The translations under genes were made by a program, and so were the position numbers. The notes beneath the pieces were generated by a model. The model worked only from the letters and a program-made list of their open reading frames with translations, searched no databases and was not told where the DNA came from. This document shows positions 3,473 through 60,850 of a stretch of DNA of 64,000 bases, piece by piece (position 1 is the stretch's first letter; every line of letters starts with the position of its first letter). This stretch comes from a virus. The DNA lies in the IMG/VR virus record IMGVR_UViG_3300045988_101308, positions 60,792-124,791 of that record; one strand, 5' to 3'.

Positions 3473-3545
3473 GGTCCTGTAGCTTAGTGGTGAAAGCAAG
3501 ATGCTCATAACATCGAGATCGTGGGTTCAAATCCCTCCGGGACCA
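3473..3545 (+). tRNA. tRNA-Met (anticodon CAT; could be Ile2-lysidine)
   Basis: Cloverleaf: acceptor GGTCCTG / CGGGACC; D arm GCTT-AGTGGTGA-AAGC; anticodon loop CTCATAA; T loop GGGTTCAAATCCC. No encoded CCA. Confidence 0.8.
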
Positions 3546-3546
3546 C

Positions 3547-3617
3547 TGTCCAATGGTGTAGTGGTAGCACAACAGATTTTGGTTCTGTTAGCGGAAGTTC
3601 GATCCTTCCTTGGATAA
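3547..3617 (+). tRNA. tRNA-Gln (anticodon TTG)
   Basis: Acceptor TGTCCAA / TTGGATA; anticodon stem ACAGA / TCTGT with loop TTTTGGT; T arm GGAAG-TTCGATC-CTTCC. Starts 1 nt after tRNA-Met. No encoded CCA. Confidence 0.75.
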
Positions 3618-3686
3618 CGATTAAGTTTTTGTGGAAATGTTAATTATCTCAGTGTTTGCGGTGTGTGAACATAGCAAACATTAAAT

Positions 3687-3758
3687 GGCCCATTAGTTTA
3701 ATGGATAAAACCTTTGAGTCCTAATCAAAAGTTGCCTGTTCGATTCAGGCATGGGCTA
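3687..3758 (+). tRNA. tRNA-Arg (anticodon CCT)
   Basis: Acceptor GGCCCAT / ATGGGCT; D stem GTTT / AAAC; anticodon stem TTTGA / TCAAA with loop GTCCTAA; T arm GCCTG-TTCGATT-CAGGC. Confidence 0.8.
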
Positions 3759-3761
3759 CAT

Positions 3762-3833
3762 GGCTTGTTGGATGAGTGGTTTAGTCAGGGGTCCGCAAAA
3801 CCTCGTATGGCGGTTCGATTCCGCCACAAGCCT
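3762..3833 (+). tRNA. tRNA-Cys-like (anticodon GCA) with a non-canonical C33 and a 3-bp D stem
   Basis: Perfect acceptor GGCTTGT / ACAAGCC and T arm GGCGG-TTCGATT-CCGCC. Anticodon stem GGGGT / ACCTC with loop CCGCAAA. Position 33 is C, not the near-universal U, so decoding identity is uncertain. Confidence 0.55.
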
Positions 3834-3850
3834 CTAAAAAAAGTAAGACA

Positions 3851-5680: not shown

Positions 5681-6094
5681 ATGAAAGTGGATTTTTTTAA
5701 CAGTAAGGATTTTTTAGGATCTAAAACTAAAGAAAGCAAGATCCGGAAGTTGTCAATCAGCAAAAGTAAGATAATGACTATCTCTGTCTATAATTTGAAT
5801 TGGATGGGGGTAACGGATGCGGTTGTTATCGGCTTAGAAGAAGGGAAGATATTTGAAGGAGTTGAAAATACGGTCTTTTATCTGGCTGCTTCTGATGTTG
5901 AAGACGAGAGATCGTTTAAGGTAAATAACCTTGGTGTAAAATACAAGAGGATTTACTTAAAAGACCTGCTCGATTATCTTGGATGGGATATAGGAGAAAA
6001 TTCTTATGCTGTGTATGATATTATAAAAGAAGACAGTAATCTATTCCGTCTTCAGCTTAGGGTGATAAAAAAGAGTAGGAGTGAAAAATTATGA
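5681..6094 (+). CDS. hypothetical protein (137 aa), first gene of the HAD/DHH operon
   Basis: Stop codon overlaps the start of the HAD gene (ATGA); no motif. Confidence 0.45.
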   Translation: MKVDFFNSKDFLGSKTKESKIRKLSISKSKIMTISVYNLNWMGVTDAVVIGLEEGKIFEGVENTVFYLAASDVEDERSFKVNNLGVKYKRIYLKDLLDYLGWDIGENSYAVYDIIKEDSNLFRLQLRVIKKSRSEKL

Positions 6095-6966
6095 ACGATG
6101 TAGATATTAAAAACAAAAGAATACTGCTATTCGATTTTGACGGGACGCTTATAGAAACCGCTTCTGGGAATACGTTCGCTACAGACTTGACAGATATGAG
6201 GATTAAGATGGATGTGGTGAATAAGGCTCTTGACCTCATGCAGGAGAACGGTGTTAAGGTATTTGCTATCGTAAGCAATCAAGGAGGAGTAGAAGCTGGG
6301 TTTGTTTCTGGAGCTGATATTGAAGCTAAGATAGAATACGTACTGAGGTCCGTACATGATCTGGCGGTAAAGAGAGGCATAAGAGGCGTCCTATATGAAA
6401 AAAGGTTGTGTTATTCAAATGACGAACAAAATCCGATGAGGAAGCCTAACACTGGCATGATTGATGATATTCTTATGAAGTGTAAAGACACGGTAATGCG
6501 TGGTATGAACTTTAGTCAACTTAAGGGATGTTCGTTGATGGTCGGGGACGCCAGTGGCCTACCAGGGCAGTTCTCTGATTCGGATAAGGTATGTGCTGAG
6601 AAGGCCGGCGTTGAATATATGGATGTTATCACGTTTGTTGGTAAAGACCTTGATTTGAATTATGTGTTGTCCAAAGAACATACAAGTGAAGGAATAGTTA
6701 TTCTAAACAACGATCATATATATATCCTTGAAAATCCATATGGGGTTGGTCTTAATATAAAAATCACTTTAAAAGATTTTTATAAGATTGAAACCGATGA
6801 TGGAAAAACTGCAACCGTAGATGATGTGCTGAATATAAGGATTGATAAAGATCAGAATTTCAATTCATATAGTGATGTTATAAAAATAGAAACATTAAAA
6901 GACGGTAGTATCAAATATACAAGCTTATATCATGAAAGTAAAGAAAACAGCGATAGTTTATCATAA
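6091..6966 (+). CDS. HAD-superfamily phosphatase (PNKP 3'-phosphatase-like or GmhB-like) with a C-terminal extension of about 100 aa
   Basis: HAD motif I LFDFDGTLIE (DxDGT), motif II VSNQGG (S/T), motif III K in RKPNTGM, motif IV MVGDASGLPGQFSDSD. Confidence 0.7.
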   Translation: MNDVDIKNKRILLFDFDGTLIETASGNTFATDLTDMRIKMDVVNKALDLMQENGVKVFAIVSNQGGVEAGFVSGADIEAKIEYVLRSVHDLAVKRGIRGVLYEKRLCYSNDEQNPMRKPNTGMIDDILMKCKDTVMRGMNFSQLKGCSLMVGDASGLPGQFSDSDKVCAEKAGVEYMDVITFVGKDLDLNYVLSKEHTSEGIVILNNDHIYILENPYGVGLNIKITLKDFYKIETDDGKTATVDDVLNIRIDKDQNFNSYSDVIKIETLKDGSIKYTSLYHESKENSDSLS

Positions 6967-7888
6967 ATCGGATTTAGATGGCGTTGTGTCGGCAGCCATC
7001 GCAACTATGTATGAACACAGTAAAAACAAGGATGTTGTTTATATCCCGTATTCGTATGAAGATGATGTTAAGAAAGTTACCAGCAAGGTGCGTGACTTAG
7101 ATGCTGTTTATGTTCTTGACGTGTCTTTCGGAGCCGATTCTAAAACGGTTTTCAAAAAGTGGCTTGATGAAGGAAAGAGCCTGATGTGGATAGATCACCA
7201 TAAGGGAATTATTGAGGACAGTAAGACATGGGGGTTCGTAGTTCCAGGGTTGAGGAGAGTCGGCGTCGGTGCGTGCGCTCTGGCTTCGGACCTGCTTATG
7301 GGGAAGGTGCCGGCGATCGTCCGGTGCCTGTCAGACTACGATGTGTGGAATAAAGAATCTGAATTAGGTTGGGATACGGTAGTAGCTATCCAGTATGCCT
7401 TGAGATCAAAAATAAGACTCAATGTATTAATAGCATTGTCGTATTTGTATGACCATTTTAAAGAAGATATGAAGGACAATGAAATTGATCTTATTTTTTA
7501 TGATCTCGCTAAAGAAGGACGTGCTATAATTAATTACATGGCTGGTAAAAACGAACAAGAGGTAAGTGCGTATTCGTTTGAAGCTTACGTCGATGAGGTG
7601 AAGGTAGTGGCGATGAATACCACGGAATTTAGTTCTAAAGTATTTGATTCTCTTACACGAGACTGGTTAGACGGTAGAAAAATTAAAGCCCTTATGCCAT
7701 TTTGTATCATGCCAGGTGGTAAGGTTAGGTTCTCTCTTTATGAATGCGTGGAAGACAGCGCGGATTGCTGTGAAGTAAGTAAGAGATTCGGTGGTGGAGG
7801 ACATGCTGGTGCTGCTGGGTTTGTGCTTGATGTCACGGATATCAGATTCAGGGAATTTATAGAAAAACATAAACTTATATCACAATGA
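6932..7888 (+). CDS. DHH/DHHA1 phosphoesterase (NrnA-like nanoRNase, or pAp/c-di-NMP phosphodiesterase family)
   Basis: DHH motifs HKSDLDG (I), VLDVSFG (II), WIDHHKG (III, DHH); DHHA1 motif FGGGGHAGAAGF near the C-terminus. Confidence 0.75.
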   Translation: MKVKKTAIVYHKSDLDGVVSAAIATMYEHSKNKDVVYIPYSYEDDVKKVTSKVRDLDAVYVLDVSFGADSKTVFKKWLDEGKSLMWIDHHKGIIEDSKTWGFVVPGLRRVGVGACALASDLLMGKVPAIVRCLSDYDVWNKESELGWDTVVAIQYALRSKIRLNVLIALSYLYDHFKEDMKDNEIDLIFYDLAKEGRAIINYMAGKNEQEVSAYSFEAYVDEVKVVAMNTTEFSSKVFDSLTRDWLDGRKIKALMPFCIMPGGKVRFSLYECVEDSADCCEVSKRFGGGGHAGAAGFVLDVTDIRFREFIEKHKLISQ

Positions 7889-8277
7889 AGTGCGAACTGT
7901 ATCAATTTTCCCCACAAGTCTATCCCTTTAATCTGTGGATATATGTAGGTAAAGATGTTTCTGGTATGGTAGAGTGTTTCAATAACGATTTTAGTTACAT
8001 AGATAATAGTATGGGCGCAACCATAACCGTACCGTATGGAGGATGCAAATTAGATCCTTGCACAGGATTCTTGATATGGTTTATTAATAAGAACGTTATT
8101 GATTTTAACACAGTCTCACACGAGGCAGCCCATGTGTCTCTCAATGCATTTGATTTCTTAGGAGAAAAAGTAATGCAATCAGAACCTTTCTGCTACCTCG
8201 TTGGATGGGTGGCAGGAAAGTGTGAAGAAGTAAAGAAAGGAAAAGTACGAGATAAATTAATATGGGAAAGTAAGTGA
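7885..8277 (+). CDS. small HExxH protein (putative Zn metallopeptidase-like, ImmA/DUF955-like)
   Basis: SHEAAHVSL contains HEAAH (HExxH). 130 aa. Overlaps the DHH gene stop by 4 nt. Confidence 0.4.
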   Translation: MKCELYQFSPQVYPFNLWIYVGKDVSGMVECFNNDFSYIDNSMGATITVPYGGCKLDPCTGFLIWFINKNVIDFNTVSHEAAHVSLNAFDFLGEKVMQSEPFCYLVGWVAGKCEEVKKGKVRDKLIWESK

Positions 8278-8311
8278 GGTAATTTTAAAATATTGTTGGT
8301 TGTAGTAAGTG

Positions 8312-8346
8312 GGGAGGTCCTAAATAGGCTTCCCTGCTTTTTTTTA
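8312..8346 (+). terminator. rho-independent terminator of the 5681-8277 operon
   Basis: Stem GGGAGG / CTTCCC, 11-nt loop, then TGCTTTTTTTT. Confidence 0.65.
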
Positions 8347-8368
8347 TGTGATGAGGAAGAAAGGTAAA

Positions 8369-8570
8369 AATGTTTATGTTACGGGAGAGAGATTAAGAAT
8401 GTTTATGTGATAGGAGAGAAGCTAAAAAAGGTTTGTGTGATGAGGGATATGAAAGATGTTTATGTGATGGGAGAGAGATTAAGAATGTTTATGTGATAGG
8501 AGAGAAGCTAAAAAAGGTTTGTGTGATGAGGGATATGAAAGATGTTTATGTGATGGGAGAGAGGGGGTAC
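8369..8570 (+). repeat. iteron array: 6-7 contiguous copies of a 25-33-bp unit, consensus ATGTTTATGTGATRGGAGAGA; higher-order period 86 bp
   Basis: Unit starts: AATGTTTATGTTACGGGAGAGAGATTAAG (8369), AATGTTTATGTGATAGGAGAGAAGCT... (8398), GTTTGTGTGATGAGGGATATGAAAG (8430), ATGTTTATGTGATGGGAGAGAGATTAAG (8455), then an exact 86-bp repeat of the last three. No spacers, so not CRISPR. Confidence 0.8.
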
Positions 8571-8582
8571 CTATCACGAACC

Positions 8583-8647
8583 TCCCGCCCCCGAAACGCG
8601 TTTTCTCCCCCACACCCCCTTCGCTGGAAAACCGGAAACGCGTTTTT
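8583..8647. promoter_or_regulatory. two copies of the perfect palindrome AAACGCGTTT (8585-8594 and 8636-8645) in a GC-rich spacer next to the iterons
   Basis: CGAAACGCGTTTTC and GGAAACGCGTTTTT. Further ACGCGT cores lie at 9099, 9628 and 9643, giving 5 within 1.1 kb of AT-rich DNA. Confidence 0.5.
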
Positions 8648-8977
8648 ACCTCAAACCTACAAACTGCCTTATTATCAATCACTTATTTAAATTGTTGTAA
8701 ATCAGCTTGTTACGATAACTCGTTGATTGTAAGCCATTTAAGCAAACATATATCCTACATATTAATGTACGCGTGTAATACTGCTCTTGTGTGCTTTGTA
8801 AATTGCTAATAATCAGATGATAGAATCGAAATTAATACAAGTTAACAAAAAAAAGATAGCATATATATTTGTAGTAATGATAAATGTAGTATATTTGCAA
8901 TGTCATCGAGAGAGATGAAAACAGTTAAGTGATGATATACTATATATACGCCGTTGGTAGTATAATGGTTAAATCTC

Positions 8978-9006
8978 GCAACCTATTTGCGTTGTAAATA
9001 GGTTGC
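8978..9006 (+). promoter_or_regulatory. perfect 11-bp inverted repeat (operator or terminator-like hairpin) upstream of 9048..9587
   Basis: GCAACCTATTT-gcgttg-AAATAGGTTGC. TAnnTTTG motifs sit at 8868-8875 and 8890-8897 upstream. Confidence 0.45.
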
Positions 9007-9047
9007 AAATAGAGATGATATTGTTTAACAAATAAATAAATATTGAC

Positions 9048-9587
9048 ATGATTACGAAAAAAAACATTAACAGGTTGCAAAACGTTGTTATAAAAGAAAA
9101 CGCGTCAAATTTAGTTGGCGCGGTAAAACTGTACAACGCTTTATTCGCCAACGGTGCAGATCTAAAGGCTGTTTGCAAGGCTTTGGAAATACCGGCAGAA
9201 TACGCCGTAAAGGTAGCAGCATTGGCAAAGGATAAAAAACGCCTTGTTGCAGTGTGTAGTCAAATGCTGCCAAAGGTTGGCGATACCTTTGTTAAATTTG
9301 CTTTATACTCTAAAGTGTATAAAGATACCAATGCGGACAAAGAAAAAGGAATTGAAGCTAAAACGGCTGATTGGTGCGCCGAGAATGTGGTTTACGGTAG
9401 CGAATATAAAGCATTCGGTTTTACTACTGCCGAATCATTGGAGACTAAAAAAAGTACTAAATGGTTGGTAAAAGAAACCGACGAGTACAAATCTACTTAT
9501 GTGGCTGTTAAGATCAAATCTTATTCAATCCGTACCATTGCAAAGTGTGTAAGTGAATACCTCGCACATGAAAGCAACCAGCAGTAA
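9048..9587 (+). CDS. hypothetical alpha-helical protein (179 aa) embedded in the repeat-rich regulatory region; candidate DNA-binding, partition or initiator factor
   Basis: Flanked by the ACGCGT palindromes and the CCGTT repeat cluster. No motif; function inferred only from context. Confidence 0.4.
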   Translation: MITKKNINRLQNVVIKENASNLVGAVKLYNALFANGADLKAVCKALEIPAEYAVKVAALAKDKKRLVAVCSQMLPKVGDTFVKFALYSKVYKDTNADKEKGIEAKTADWCAENVVYGSEYKAFGFTTAESLETKKSTKWLVKETDEYKSTYVAVKIKSYSIRTIAKCVSEYLAHESNQQ

Positions 9588-10084
9588 CAAGGCACGGAGA
9601 GCGCCGTTAAGCTCTCCAAAGGTTTGACGCGTACCGTTAAACGCGTCTGTACGCCGTTGTCAGTGGGTGCACGTCCCGCGTATGCTTTAGACTGAAGCTG
9701 ACAAAATAGAGAGTTATTTTACATATTGGAGATAGATATACCGTTGCCCTTGCCGTTGGCAATTAAAGGGCTGGTATTACTGCATGGACTATCCGAATAG
9801 GTATAGTTTATGTTAGGTATGTGATTACAGTTTGGAAAACATGCCGTTGTACGAGGTTTATCTCCAGATCGAAACGTGTCTTACTTGCTTACACGAAAAA
9901 TAGAACAAGGCTGTAGATTAAATTACAGGGTACAAGCATGTAGCCTACCATGTAGGTACGTGCCGTATCAAAACGCAAGGACACAATCGCCTTTATTTGT
10001 GGCTAAGTTGTGTAGCAGACGGAAAATATAATAACAACATAGTACGGGCCTGTACACAAGAACTACGTACTAATTACGGGCTGT

Positions 10085-10148
10085 TGGTTGTAGCATAAAA
10101 TTCGTACAGGATAGGAATGCGCGTTCGGTTCGATTCCGGAGCAACCTC
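10085..10148 (+). ncRNA. tRNA-like element A (T arm TTCGG-TTCGATT-CCGGA plus acceptor-like 3' strand GCAACC); too short (about 62 nt) for a canonical tRNA
   Basis: GGTTCGATTCC T-loop identical to that of the tRNA at 3762-3833. A 5' GGTTG can pair with the 3' CAACC. Ends 24 nt before a small ORF at 10172. Confidence 0.35.
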
Positions 10149-10171
10149 TAAATTATAAACAATATAATAAC

Positions 10172-10342
10172 ATGGAAAAGAAAGAAATGATCAACGCTTT
10201 AACTGAAGCGTTCAATAAATCTAAAAACATCTGCGTAAAAATAACATTGCGTAACTATATCGAGACGGTGGAAACACTCAGTGAAAATGAGTATAAAGAG
10301 GCGGAGGGTTTCTATATCGAAGCTCTTAACCGCTGGAGTTAA
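10172..10342 (+). CDS. small hypothetical protein (56 aa)
   Basis: ATG 24 nt downstream of tRNA-like element A. Not in the supplied ORF track because it is under 60 aa. Low confidence. Confidence 0.3.
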   Translation: MEKKEMINALTEAFNKSKNICVKITLRNYIETVETLSENEYKEAEGFYIEALNRWS

Positions 10343-10364
10343 TCATAATTAAAGCATAAAGAAA

Positions 10365-10571
10365 ATGGAAAGGAAATTTAAATCTTATATGGTAGACGTC
10401 CGCGGTCTGTCCAGGAAAGAAGCTAAAGAAAAGCGGAAAAGAGCGTATCGGGAATTTATGTTGTATCGTGATCTCAAAGAAGCGTATCATGCCGATACGG
10501 GAAAGGACAAATGCAAACGTAAAGTCCATACATCACGAACTTACGTGAAGGAAAACATAAACAGTATTTAA
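10365..10571 (+). CDS. small basic protein (68 aa, K/R-rich)
   Basis: Highly basic composition; candidate nucleic-acid-binding protein. Confidence 0.35.
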   Translation: MERKFKSYMVDVRGLSRKEAKEKRKRAYREFMLYRDLKEAYHADTGKDKCKRKVHTSRTYVKENINSI

Positions 10572-10676
10572 ACAGGAGTAGGGTTGTTTCGAATATCGGA
10601 GCAGCCCTATTTTTGTATCCTACTCTTTCTATTTACGGGTAGGATATTCTGAGAGTGAACGGCGGATGTAAGCTAT

Positions 10677-10769
10677 ATTGGTCTAAAACGAAACTAAAAT
10701 AGGATAGTTTGGATATAATGCCGGTATTTTGTCTATATCATGTCGTTAAAATTGGTCTAAAACGAAACT
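10677..10769 (+). repeat. 19-bp perfect direct repeat ATTGGTCTAAAACGAAACT (10677-10695 and 10751-10769)
   Basis: Exact duplicate 74 bp apart within a 1-kb non-coding stretch. Confidence 0.7.
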
Positions 10770-11296
10770 TTATGCGGTTTTCTGGCCAAAAATAGGGTTC
10801 CGGATTCCGCCTTTTTCGTCTCTATAGATTGAAAATTAGGCTTATTGTATTTTTCTTAAAAATTATGTATGCTTGATTATCAATTAGTTAGGTTTTATAA
10901 TCCCCGTATTTTCGGACATACTTATTGTATTTTTTTTATTTTATGTGGTGGTTTTTATTAGTAGCTGACTTGTATTTTCTGTCGGTTGGTATTCGCTCTA
11001 TGTTGGAGTACGGACCGGATCAGTATAATATTGTAATGGTCTTTTGCTTTTCTTTATTGGCTTTGATTATAGGCTTAAATATCTATCTTGATAGGAGGAG
11101 CAGGCGGTAGGGCGTGGGCTGAAGGCTCTCTATTCTCTCTATGGAATGATATTATCTCTAAATACCCCATACTTCATGCCAGAGTATAAGCTTGTAGCGC
11201 TCTCCGTATGCCTGTAGTGAGACCGAGAGCGCAGGTTCTATGCGGAAAGACAGAGGATTAGACGGGGTTGGAGAGGGGGAGAGGGAGGGCACTCTC

Positions 11297-11501
11297 TTCC
11301 CGCAAAATTCAACAGATCAGCGTTTTAAAACAGCATTCTGTAGGTTCTTCCCGCAAAATTCAACAGATCAGCGTTTTAAAACAGCATTCTGTAGGTTCTT
11401 CAAACAAAATTAAGGATTGCAGTGCTTTAAAACAGCATAATGTAGAATTTTCCAACAAAATTAAGACTTACAGCGTTTTTAAAACAGTATTCTGTAGGTA
11501 A
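11297..11501 (+). repeat. 4 x 51-bp tandem repeat (copies 1-2 identical, 3-4 degenerate), each carrying the palindrome GTTTTAAAAC
   Basis: TTCCCGCAAAATTCAACAGATCAGCGTTTTAAAACAGCATTCTGTAGGTTC x2, then TTCAAACAAAATTAAGGATTGCAGTGCTTTAAAACAGCATAATGTAGAATT, then TTCCAACAAAATTAAGACTTACAGCGTTTTTAAAACAGTATTCTGTAGGTA. Confidence 0.85.
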
Positions 11502-60482: not shown

Positions 60483-60850
60483 ATTATAAACATTTCTTTC
60501 AAAATACTATTTTGTATACTATATATCAATTTCATCCCATCTCTATCATATACGTCAAAAAAGGATTCACTTAAGTTCTTTGGATTTACATTCAGTTGAA
60601 TTATGCAATTACCGGTATAAACCTTAATCCCGTAATTATCAGAGTATATATCCTGCATAGTATCAAATGTCTCAATTAAATTTTCAACAAGGGCTCTGTT
60701 AAATGAAAAAGATTCTTTACCATTACCTTTAAATGTGATATGATCTAAATTAATGTTGTCAAATACATACTCTAACTGATTGCCGTCCATCATATTATAA
60801 GTGATTGACTTTTTGATTACAAATCCCATATTATTCTGTTTTTTTAGTTG

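Follow-up and report, generated by a model that had tools for sequence, protein, structure and literature searches.

A stretch of viral DNA of 64,000 nucleotides (nt; positions 60,792 to 124,791 of IMG/VR record IMGVR_UViG_3300045988_101308, hereafter the window, counted from its first letter) contains at 8280-10170 a conserved hub of repeats around a gene for a 179-amino acid (aa) protein, here called ORF179 (open reading frame; 9048-9587, + strand). We propose, with a probability of about 0.7, that this hub is a two-gene cassette together with its control region, in which ORF179 is followed on the same strand by a structured RNA (~9620-10148). The main result is that gut phages of a widespread group carry a large structured RNA, previously undescribed, with a tRNA-like end and a protein partner of its own. 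At the level of sequence comparison, the RNA is shown to be real by helices that compensatory changes have preserved in two clades and over three or more lineages. An earlier sequence-only reading had taken the hub for an iteron-type origin or partition site bound by the ORF179 product. It stands in part: a conserved, mostly non-coding hub was borne out by deep conservation, where a repeat array adjoins a GC-rich element that does not vary, an AT-rich stretch and a promoter, but an iteron origin bound by ORF179 was not supported.

Across the queried positions 8000-10400 the window is 83% identical to GenBank OR575929.1 ('phage csAssE-Sib', 151 kb, human gut), which is an epsilon crAss-like phage (PMC11054128). 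Phages of the epsilon group, ~150 kb in length, have neither a DNA polymerase nor the crAss block of transcription genes (Yutin et al. 2021, PMC7886860); having no polymerases of their own, they must use those of the host. Epsilon phages make up roughly 13-18% of crAss-like-assigned reads, and the virome of the human gut is dominated by crAss-like phages (PMC7886860). The locus is not mentioned in the csAssE-Sib paper (PMC11054128), the zeta crAss-like paper (PMC12386605) or Yutin 2021 (PMC7886860). Using the 179-aa protein, 80 related loci were gathered from IMG/VR (clade 1), of which 56 distinct sequences entered the RNA alignment. Clade 2 comprises ~150-kb phages (MT836733.1, designated L082, plus L083-L162) whose counterpart of ORF179 is only 31-33% identical. 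Further divergent lineages, L164, L165/L166, L168 and L170, were compared with both, and IMG/VR scans using the divergent family members P0126 and P0140 as queries returned no matches.

Within clade 1, per-column conservation reaches 95-99% at 9648-10157, compared with 85-92% in the neighbouring coding sequence. RNAalifold, applied to the 56 distinct sequences, predicted a multi-helix fold of 139 pairs in which 99.4% of pair cells hold standard pairs. Double-change cells numbered 108, against 34 ± 8 in column shuffles (0/500 reached 108) and at most 29 in slid controls. In clade 2 the ORF is followed by a non-coding interval of ~670 nt, more variable than in clade 1, for which 183 pairs were predicted (97.1% paired), 57 of them with compensatory double changes; here 854 cells were double-changed, where shuffles gave 250 ± 16 and slid controls no more than 123. 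Cells with G·U outnumbered those with A·C by 965:27 in clade 1 and 2119:132 in clade 2, a 16-36 fold excess. This excess points to an RNA of the + strand, and neither a DNA cruciform nor a - strand transcript fits it.

Variable sites in the RNA region are distributed over codon positions as 40/29/29, without periodicity, compared with 37/9/122 in ORF179. Compensatory substitutions, strand-specific tolerance of G·U and absence of a coding signal, the generic marks of a structured non-coding RNA, were thus all found. A protein-coding reading of 9588-10171 could appeal to GenBank OR575929.1, where a coding sequence for a 96-aa hypothetical protein is annotated at the homologous place (556-843; L001 7661-7948). 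However, this ORF is not conserved, the window has just a 51-aa fragment, relatives differ by one- and two-base insertions or deletions, and the variation is concentrated at compensating stem positions. Given the missing codon periodicity, the annotated 96-aa sequence is almost certainly spurious, and we regard the chance of a coding role as negligible. A group I intron or split gene was also rejected, since no exons are there to be joined and Rfam gave no signal.

A covariance model of the central domain (R1, 9881-10036), seeded with clade 1 plus L170, matched its seed member L170 with an E-value of 3e-17 and, outside the seed, L165/L166 with E = 8e-6. In the R1 alignment the single-stranded blocks AUCAAAACGCAAGG and AGCAGACGGAAAA are conserved between hairpins whose stems have been compensatorily rewritten. 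The link to clade 2 is weaker and consists of synteny, common blocks such as GAGUUAUUUNACAUAUUG and GCCGUUGGC, and an nhmmer match of E = 2e-4. No Rfam 15 family, ROOL, GOLLD, group I/II introns, RNase P and 6S included, matched at its gathering threshold, and matches at E up to 10, in the window and in clade 2, were at chance level. One segment of the domain, CUUGC at 9884-9910, can pair in two ways: a local hairpin is backed by a variant in L031 and by a T-A to C-G change at 9889/9904, and a long-range helix with GCAAG (9976-9980) is backed by L165. The two pairings may reflect alternative conformations.

The three repeat types that the sequence-only reading had joined into one hub (a tandem array, ACGCGT palindromes and a CCGTT cluster) are all present and clustered far beyond chance, but they do not form one single system. 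RCCGTT, counted seven times before, occurs six times on the + strand, at 9603, 9633, 9653, 9740, 9752 and 9843 (9603-9848), out of 22 in the whole 64 kb; the supposed seventh at 9961 reads GCCGTA, and an additional GCCGTTG lies at 8950. Both of the adjacent hairpins reported for this region exist, GGAGAGC-GCCGTTAA-GCTCTCC at 9596-9617 and GACGCGT-ACCGTTAA-ACGCGTC at 9626-9647. Five of the six CCGTT copies, together with the ACGCGT pair at 9627/9641, lie in the ~530-nt core of the RNA (9620-10148, +). The sixth is in the first hairpin (9596-9617, +), an optional element present in 33/56 distinct relatives with the invariant loop GCCGUUAA and compensatory stem pairs (AU/CG, AU/GC, GC/AU). In the second hairpin the two ACGCGT sites are the arms of one stem, which in many relatives reads GCGCGT...ACGCGC instead. 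The copies GCC-GTT-GGC (9752) and CCGTTGTA (9843) are invariant, and those at 9633, 9653 and 9740 vary. The strong covariation shows the CCGTT motifs and the 9627/9641 pair to be loops and stems of the predicted + strand RNA, and not a cluster of DNA binding sites.

For ACGCGT as a whole, the clustering described earlier proved real, with six sites in place of five: the one at 8769 had been overlooked, and the other coordinates were slightly off. The 64-kb window contains only these six, at 8596, 8638, 8769, 9100, 9627 and 9641, all within 1046 base pairs (bp), for which we estimate a chance probability of ~7e-9. In the region, 6/9 copies of CGCG stand in an ACGCGT context.

The 3′ end of the RNA forms a tRNA-like module (10086-10147, +) in which an acceptor-like stem (GGUUGU/GCAACC) is combined with a T-arm and with a long arm made up of two 4-bp helices. 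The T-arm, UUCGG-UUCGAUU-CCGGA at 10124-10140, carries a canonical T-loop (UUCGAUU, 10129-10135), and its pairs covary from CG to UA. Directly 3′ of it, GCAACCU has two possible pairing partners, GGUUGU (10086-10091) and AGGUU (9620-9624); all of the alternative acceptor positions are invariant, so covariation does not decide between the two. ARAGORN at default settings and the Rfam tRNA model found nothing at 10078-10148. Only at a relaxed threshold did ARAGORN report a 71-nt 'tRNA-Ile', whose anticodon arm is contradicted by the covariation, which supports an arm of 4+4 bp with a 5-nt loop. An equivalent sub-threshold tRNA-like element of 71 nt lies at the 3′ end of the gap in L165/L166. Thus, on comparative grounds, the RNA end is shown to mimic the acceptor/T-arm half of a tRNA. 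A tRNA proper was rejected, since only the T-arm and the acceptor-like stem are present, with neither a D-arm nor a 7-nt anticodon loop. Identity as a transfer-messenger RNA (tmRNA) was likewise dismissed: ARAGORN calls none in the region, the 7.1 bits scored with the Rfam tmRNA model come from the T-loop alone, U3-A70 stands at the acceptor, and no plausible tag was found. The 'tmRNA (permuted)' calls of relaxed ARAGORN are noise, and a tmRNA-like closure through AGGTTGC at 9000 would involve a 5′ untranslated region (UTR) sequence that is specific to the window and not conserved.

The 179-aa ORF at 9048-9587 exists as described earlier, and the gene is genuine: its proteins are 89-98% identical where the DNA is 80-90% identical, and substitutions are biased to third positions, a pattern that shows purifying selection. 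The protein belongs to a very small family (38 clusters at 50% identity in a set of 1.84 billion representatives) that always occurs in the same context. An AlphaFold2 model built from a 20-sequence alignment (predicted local distance difference test 88.9, predicted template modelling score 0.81) has an orphan fold, with an N-terminal bundle of five helices and a C-terminal alpha/beta domain, and its best, weak, structural matches are NusB-like helical bundles. No Pfam or PHROG family matched. Candidate identities as Rep, ParB, a helix-turn-helix (HTH) protein or ToxN were rejected, the model showing neither a winged helix nor a known DNA-binding fold. Nothing supports a Rep, ParB or repressor identity, and the proposal that ORF179 is the binder of an origin or partition site is not supported.

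Behind the gene comes a gap of 400-780 nt without called genes, both in the five divergent lineages with downstream sequence (L164, L165/L166, L168, L170) and in the two main clades. The divergent family members for which the gap was read are P0126, P0136, P0140 and P0153 (24-43% identity); P0137 and P0144 were left out of this count because their contigs end too early. A non-coding gap thus follows the gene in every lineage with downstream sequence, which argues that protein and RNA form a conserved cassette. Two small ORFs on the + strand come after the RNA (56 aa, 10172-10342; 68 aa, 10365-10571), then a terminator-like hairpin with a T-run (~10579-10614, +) that is probably the end of the transcription unit. 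Clade 2 has a 68-aa ORF at the same place, followed by a hairpin with a T-run, a similarity judged by eye. In L164 (2686-3500, 4086-4700) and L168 (1488-2560), whose proteins are ~25% identical, the non-coding sequences have blocks in common, for example GCGTGGAAGGTYCG, and terminator-like hairpins follow the gene; the 5′ leader of L164 is ~650 nt long. The RNA partner in these two lineages may be shorter or differently arranged.

The region between the array and ORF179 (8564-9010) contains a series of conserved control elements. At 8564-8650 (+) lies a GC-rich element with C-runs, near-invariant in clade 1, which includes the 10-bp palindrome AAACGCGTTT twice; the second copy was correctly placed at 8636, and the first, given before as 8585, begins at 8594, an error of 9. 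When folded, the two copies (8594-8603, 8636-8645) can pair into one 13-bp stem around a C-rich loop. In clade 2 its place is taken by a non-palindromic stem, CCGUUUUU/GGGAACGG, that encloses a C-rich loop and shows U-G/U-A variation; this points to the pair of AAACGCGTTT copies as the two arms of a single hairpin. Their reading as separate protein-binding palindromes is weakened by the non-palindromic arms of clade 2 and is not fully rejected: L170 keeps a single 12-bp palindrome, AGAACGCGTTCT, between C-runs, so that a palindromic protein site stays possible. An operator-like palindrome of the type TGATTATCAATCA / TGATTATCAAT, here TTATTATCAATCAC, follows at 8668-8683 and is conserved in clade 1, clade 2, L170 and L164. 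The motif ATTAATGTACGCGT (ATTAATGTACGCG) at 8761-8774 is unique in the window, carries the ACGCGT of 8769, is invariant in clade 1 and recurs in L170 (protein 38% identical) and L164 (protein 26% identical).

A host promoter of the Bacteroides type was recognized at 8867-8897 (+), with TTTG at 8867-8870, N19 and TATATTTG at 8890-8897; the consensus is reportedly TTTG-N19-21-TAnnTTTG (Bayley et al. 2000). The promoter is invariant in clade 1 and recurs nearly unchanged in clade 2 and L170, as GTAGTATATTTGC with TTTG-N20. From its position we infer a transcription start near 8905. In the 5′ UTR of ORF179, a hairpin at 8978-9010 (+) has an 11-bp stem that covaries among relatives and an invariant loop, GCGTTGT. 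On the left the hub is bounded by the intrinsic terminator of the upstream 130-aa gene (8307-8346, +; a 13-bp stem followed by T8).

These elements suggest a working model for the cassette. Host RNA polymerase would transcribe ORF179, the RNA and the two small ORFs as one unit, from ~8905 to ~10614. The tRNA-like end would help to release or mature the RNA through RNase P/Z and possibly a phage CCA-adding enzyme. ORF179 would be the partner of the RNA and recognize hairpin loops of the type (C/G)CGUU(G/A), which recur in the RNA and appear once in the 5′ UTR of ORF179, where they would permit autoregulation by mimicry. The proposed binding and autoregulation rest on the resemblance between the invariant GCGTTGT loop and the CGUU-type loops of the RNA, and we consider them possible at somewhat less than even odds. 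Four tRNAs, a polynucleotide kinase (PNK) 3′-phosphatase, a DHH phosphoesterase and, in a relative, a CCA-adding enzyme were counted as RNA-related neighbours in support of the model. Our leading guess is that the ribonucleoprotein is an early-expressed factor acting on host RNA or the host transcription machinery. A bolder version, in which this new ribonucleoprotein (an ornate RNA of 530-670 nt with a tRNA-like 3′ module and an orphan-fold protein, made early under a host-type promoter and flanked by hypervariable, purine-rich repeats) captures host machinery, either as an RNA-primed/R-loop origin or by reprogramming RNA polymerase, we consider doubtful.

Several observations weigh against the cassette as proposed. 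The consensus structures were derived from the very alignments on which they were scored, and the entire 8560-11264 module is unusually conserved, so that high conservation alone is not specific to the RNA. Just 2-3/6 CCGUU copies are invariant, and clade 2 lacks the same loop motif. Clade 2 also has no canonical T-loop and gives no match to model R1. Local and long-range pairings compete at the second hairpin, the 9884-9910 helix and the acceptor-like stem. Finally, the ends of the transcript, its processing and the contact between protein and RNA are inferences.

Two tandem arrays flank the cassette. Array 1 corresponds to the 'iterons', which had been read as units of about 28 bp at 8369-8570; the array is real, but Tandem Repeats Finder places it at 8343-8563 with a period of 29-30 bp (~29 bp x 7.7 copies) and an 86-bp super-unit x 2.3 at 97% identity. 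Its + strand is purine-rich, with the core GTTTATGTGAT(R)GGAGAGA / GGGATATG. The motif GTTTRTGTRAT is found 7 times in the array and outside it no more often than expected by chance (16 in 64 kb; shuffles 7.2 ± 2.8). In 43 relatives array 1 ends ~480 bp before the ORF and has 2-13 copies of 27-33 bp units, with super-units of 57-145 bp. Clade 2 carries arrays at the same relative place, with units of 9-49 bp and the GGGATATG core (GGGATATGC and others), and a second array ~2.1 kb downstream of the ORF start; L170 has a short array of the ATATGTGGAGA type. The expectation that the repeats would be conserved in relatives therefore held for array position and the ATGTG..GGA-type core, which persist across lineages, but not for unit length (9-60 bp) or copy number (2-17). 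Judged from these sequences, the variable unit length of array 1 is atypical of classical phased iterons. A CRISPR-like array was excluded, as there are no unique spacers.

Array 2 (11295-11499; 51 bp x 4), preceded by a G-run (GGGGTTGGAGAGGGGGAGAGGGAGGG) at 11262-11290, is hypervariable, while 10365-11264 is 92-99% conserved, as is the whole 2.7-kb module between the arrays (8560-11264). Among the 80 clade-1 contigs, 14 end in array 1 and 15 in array 2 (29/80), and many Logan contigs are ~2.75 kb long, which equals the inter-array distance. Their fixed positions and the contig ends indicate that the arrays are conserved features and strong assembly breakers, and they explain the frequent assembly breaks of these phages at two fixed points. 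Among Logan/ENA contigs with P0001-P0120, very many are ~2.75 kb, and some protein clusters have >2000 member sequences. The many contigs of this length imply that the inter-array module was assembled alone in many samples, consistent with a common phage.

The arrays could have no role beyond this, as minisatellites prone to slippage and close to selectively neutral, or as hot spots of recombination that mark the limits of an exchangeable module, with the breaking of short-read assemblies as their main visible effect. Copy number and unit length differ even between near-identical phages, the contig ends and ~2.75-kb contigs agree with such behaviour, and the module is more uniform than the remaining genome, as homogenisation by recombination would make it. 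But the same two array positions are kept across ~70% protein divergence, with the upstream core ATGTGR..GGA still recognisable, and this persistence argues for selection on the presence of repeats; we consider the neutral explanation unlikely. Array 1, the GC-rich hairpin element and the AT-rich stretch make up a cis-acting region with a possible control or origin role. The form of this idea closest to the earlier proposal is an iteron-type theta origin, in which ORF179 would act as initiator on 8343-8563, the GC-/AT-rich stretch would serve as core and unwinding element, and the palindromes would be autoregulatory operators. The order of array, GC-rich, AT-rich, promoter and gene does resemble that of plasmid basic replicons, and array position and core persist across proteins that are 31-38% identical. 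Epsilon phages, moreover, have minimal replication genes and no DNA polymerase (PMC7886860), so a host-recruiting origin is needed. Yet the array has no fixed unit in helical phase, no winged-helix Rep is adjacent, inspection by eye found no DnaA-box-like motif, and the CCGTT part of the proposal is accounted for by the RNA. The skew evidence is divided. Genes in the window run on the + strand from 1 to ~52,000 and then on the - strand, and GC skew tracks this orientation; the skew check put the sign changes at the strand switches, with a divergent point ~15 kb upstream (record position ~17.4 kb) and a convergent point at window ~52 kb, ~42 kb downstream of the locus. The skew nevertheless steps up at ~8000-11500, GC from ~0.17 to ~0.30 and AT from ~0.06 to ~0.15, among co-oriented genes, and does the same in OR575929.1, around position 1 of that record. 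This step could be a replication signal, or equally the boundary of transcription blocks with different purine loading, and its excess of A over T fits stronger loading of a separate block. Replication genes lie 22-27 kb downstream of the locus, and a partition hub found no support, as a domain scan of the neighbouring ORFs detected no ParA or ParB and the annotated 'ATPase' matches coiled coils only. Skew, replication genes and the ParA/ParB result together leave an origin at 8343-8900 as a minority possibility, with the CCGTT sites rejected as DNA elements; we rate the iteron origin quite unlikely.

Two further alternatives accept the RNA and assign it a different task. By analogy with ColE1, it might be a pre-primer like RNA II, or nucleate an R-loop, with host DNA polymerases I/III extending the processed RNA and with purine/G-rich arrays and G-run/C-run elements stabilising RNA-DNA hybrids. 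ColE1 RNA II is ~555 nt long; the present RNA, at 530-670 nt, is likewise highly structured and has a host-type promoter in a phage without DNA polymerase. In all lineages the transcribed-sense strand of the arrays is rich in purines, the module is flanked by G-runs and C-runs, and the tRNA-like end offers a putative RNase P/Z processing site. Against this, there is analogy only, with no similarity to RNA II in sequence or structure; neither an RNA I-like antisense promoter nor a Rom-like gene was identified, a terminator separates upstream transcription from array 1, and, unlike in ColE1, a protein gene precedes the RNA on the same transcript. A transcription-primed origin is hence very improbable in our judgement. 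Alternatively the RNA, with or without ORF179, might be a processive antiterminator that modifies host RNA polymerase in the manner of put, nut/N or EAR and enables read-through near 10614 for the benefit of ~40 kb of co-directional genes downstream. The locus stands exactly at the GC/AT skew step, ahead of ~45 small co-oriented ORFs, in a phage without its own RNA polymerase; a strong terminator closes the cassette, and the NusB-like bundles found as the best, though weak, structural matches of ORF179 would suit such a function. We consider it improbable in this specific form.

Compared with known systems, the proposed cassette recalls the ornate RNAs ROOL and GOLLD of phages and prophages, which are also several hundred nt long, with many covarying helices, tRNA genes nearby and a function that is not evident from sequence. 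It differs from them in that covariance models show no likeness even at E up to 10, a protein partner of its own is encoded upstream, the 3′ module is tRNA-like, and it occurs in Bacteroidota-infecting epsilon crAss-like phages. Like tmRNA, T4 stable RNAs C and D and viral tRNA-like ends, the RNA is a longer molecule that ends in a canonical T-arm with an acceptor-like 3′ strand directly behind it, and, as in tmRNA, 5′ AGGUU (9620-9624) could alternatively close the whole RNA with 3′ AACCU. Unlike tmRNA, however, the present RNA has no ARAGORN/Rfam call, G3:U70, encoded CCA or tag reading frame; it also has no D-arm, its 'anticodon' arm bears a variable 5-nt loop, and the canonical T-loop is missing from clade 2.

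Iteron theta replicons (RK2 oriV, P1 oriR, pSC101, lambda ori) are alike in their tandem direct repeats beside GC-/AT-rich blocks and a small gene with palindromes in its promoter region. There, the unit is fixed in length and phase and the neighbouring protein has a Rep-like winged helix, neither of which applies here; no DnaA boxes were seen by eye, and one third of the supposed sites are RNA structure. With ColE1 RNA II the locus has in common a structured RNA of ~550 nt, made by host RNA polymerase in a replicon reliant on host DNA polymerases, but there is no homology and no identified antisense regulator, and the likeness in priming is an analogy. Type III toxin-antitoxin systems (ToxIN) offer a similar order, with an array of ~30-nt repeats and then a hairpin element upstream of a protein of ~175 aa. 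Here, by contrast, a conserved promoter of its own and a spacer of ~400-480 bp separate array and gene, units may be as short as 9 bp in relatives, and the protein model matches neither ToxN nor any solved fold.

The locus is the largest non-coding island of the early region and is conserved above the surrounding genes. As the phages have no polymerase genes of their own, it may bear on how transcription and replication of epsilon phages start. The RNA and protein are a concrete, clonable pair, and the RNA is a candidate for the short list of very large structured phage RNAs.

The neighbourhood, in a window of ~0.36-0.40 GC, resembles one for RNA repair or tRNA maintenance. Genes for tRNA Met, Gln, Arg-CCU and Cys lie at 3473-3834, and a PNK-type 3′-phosphatase (6091-6966) followed by a DHH/DHHA1 phosphoesterase (6932-7888) stands upstream of the hub; in a relative, a CCA-adding-type nucleotidyltransferase is encoded downstream. 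Within the module, the ~700 bp at 10572-11264 are mostly non-coding and may hold further RNA or DNA elements; they contain a 61-aa hydrophobic ORF (10925-11110) and a direct repeat, GGTCTAAAACGAAACT, at 10680 and 10754.

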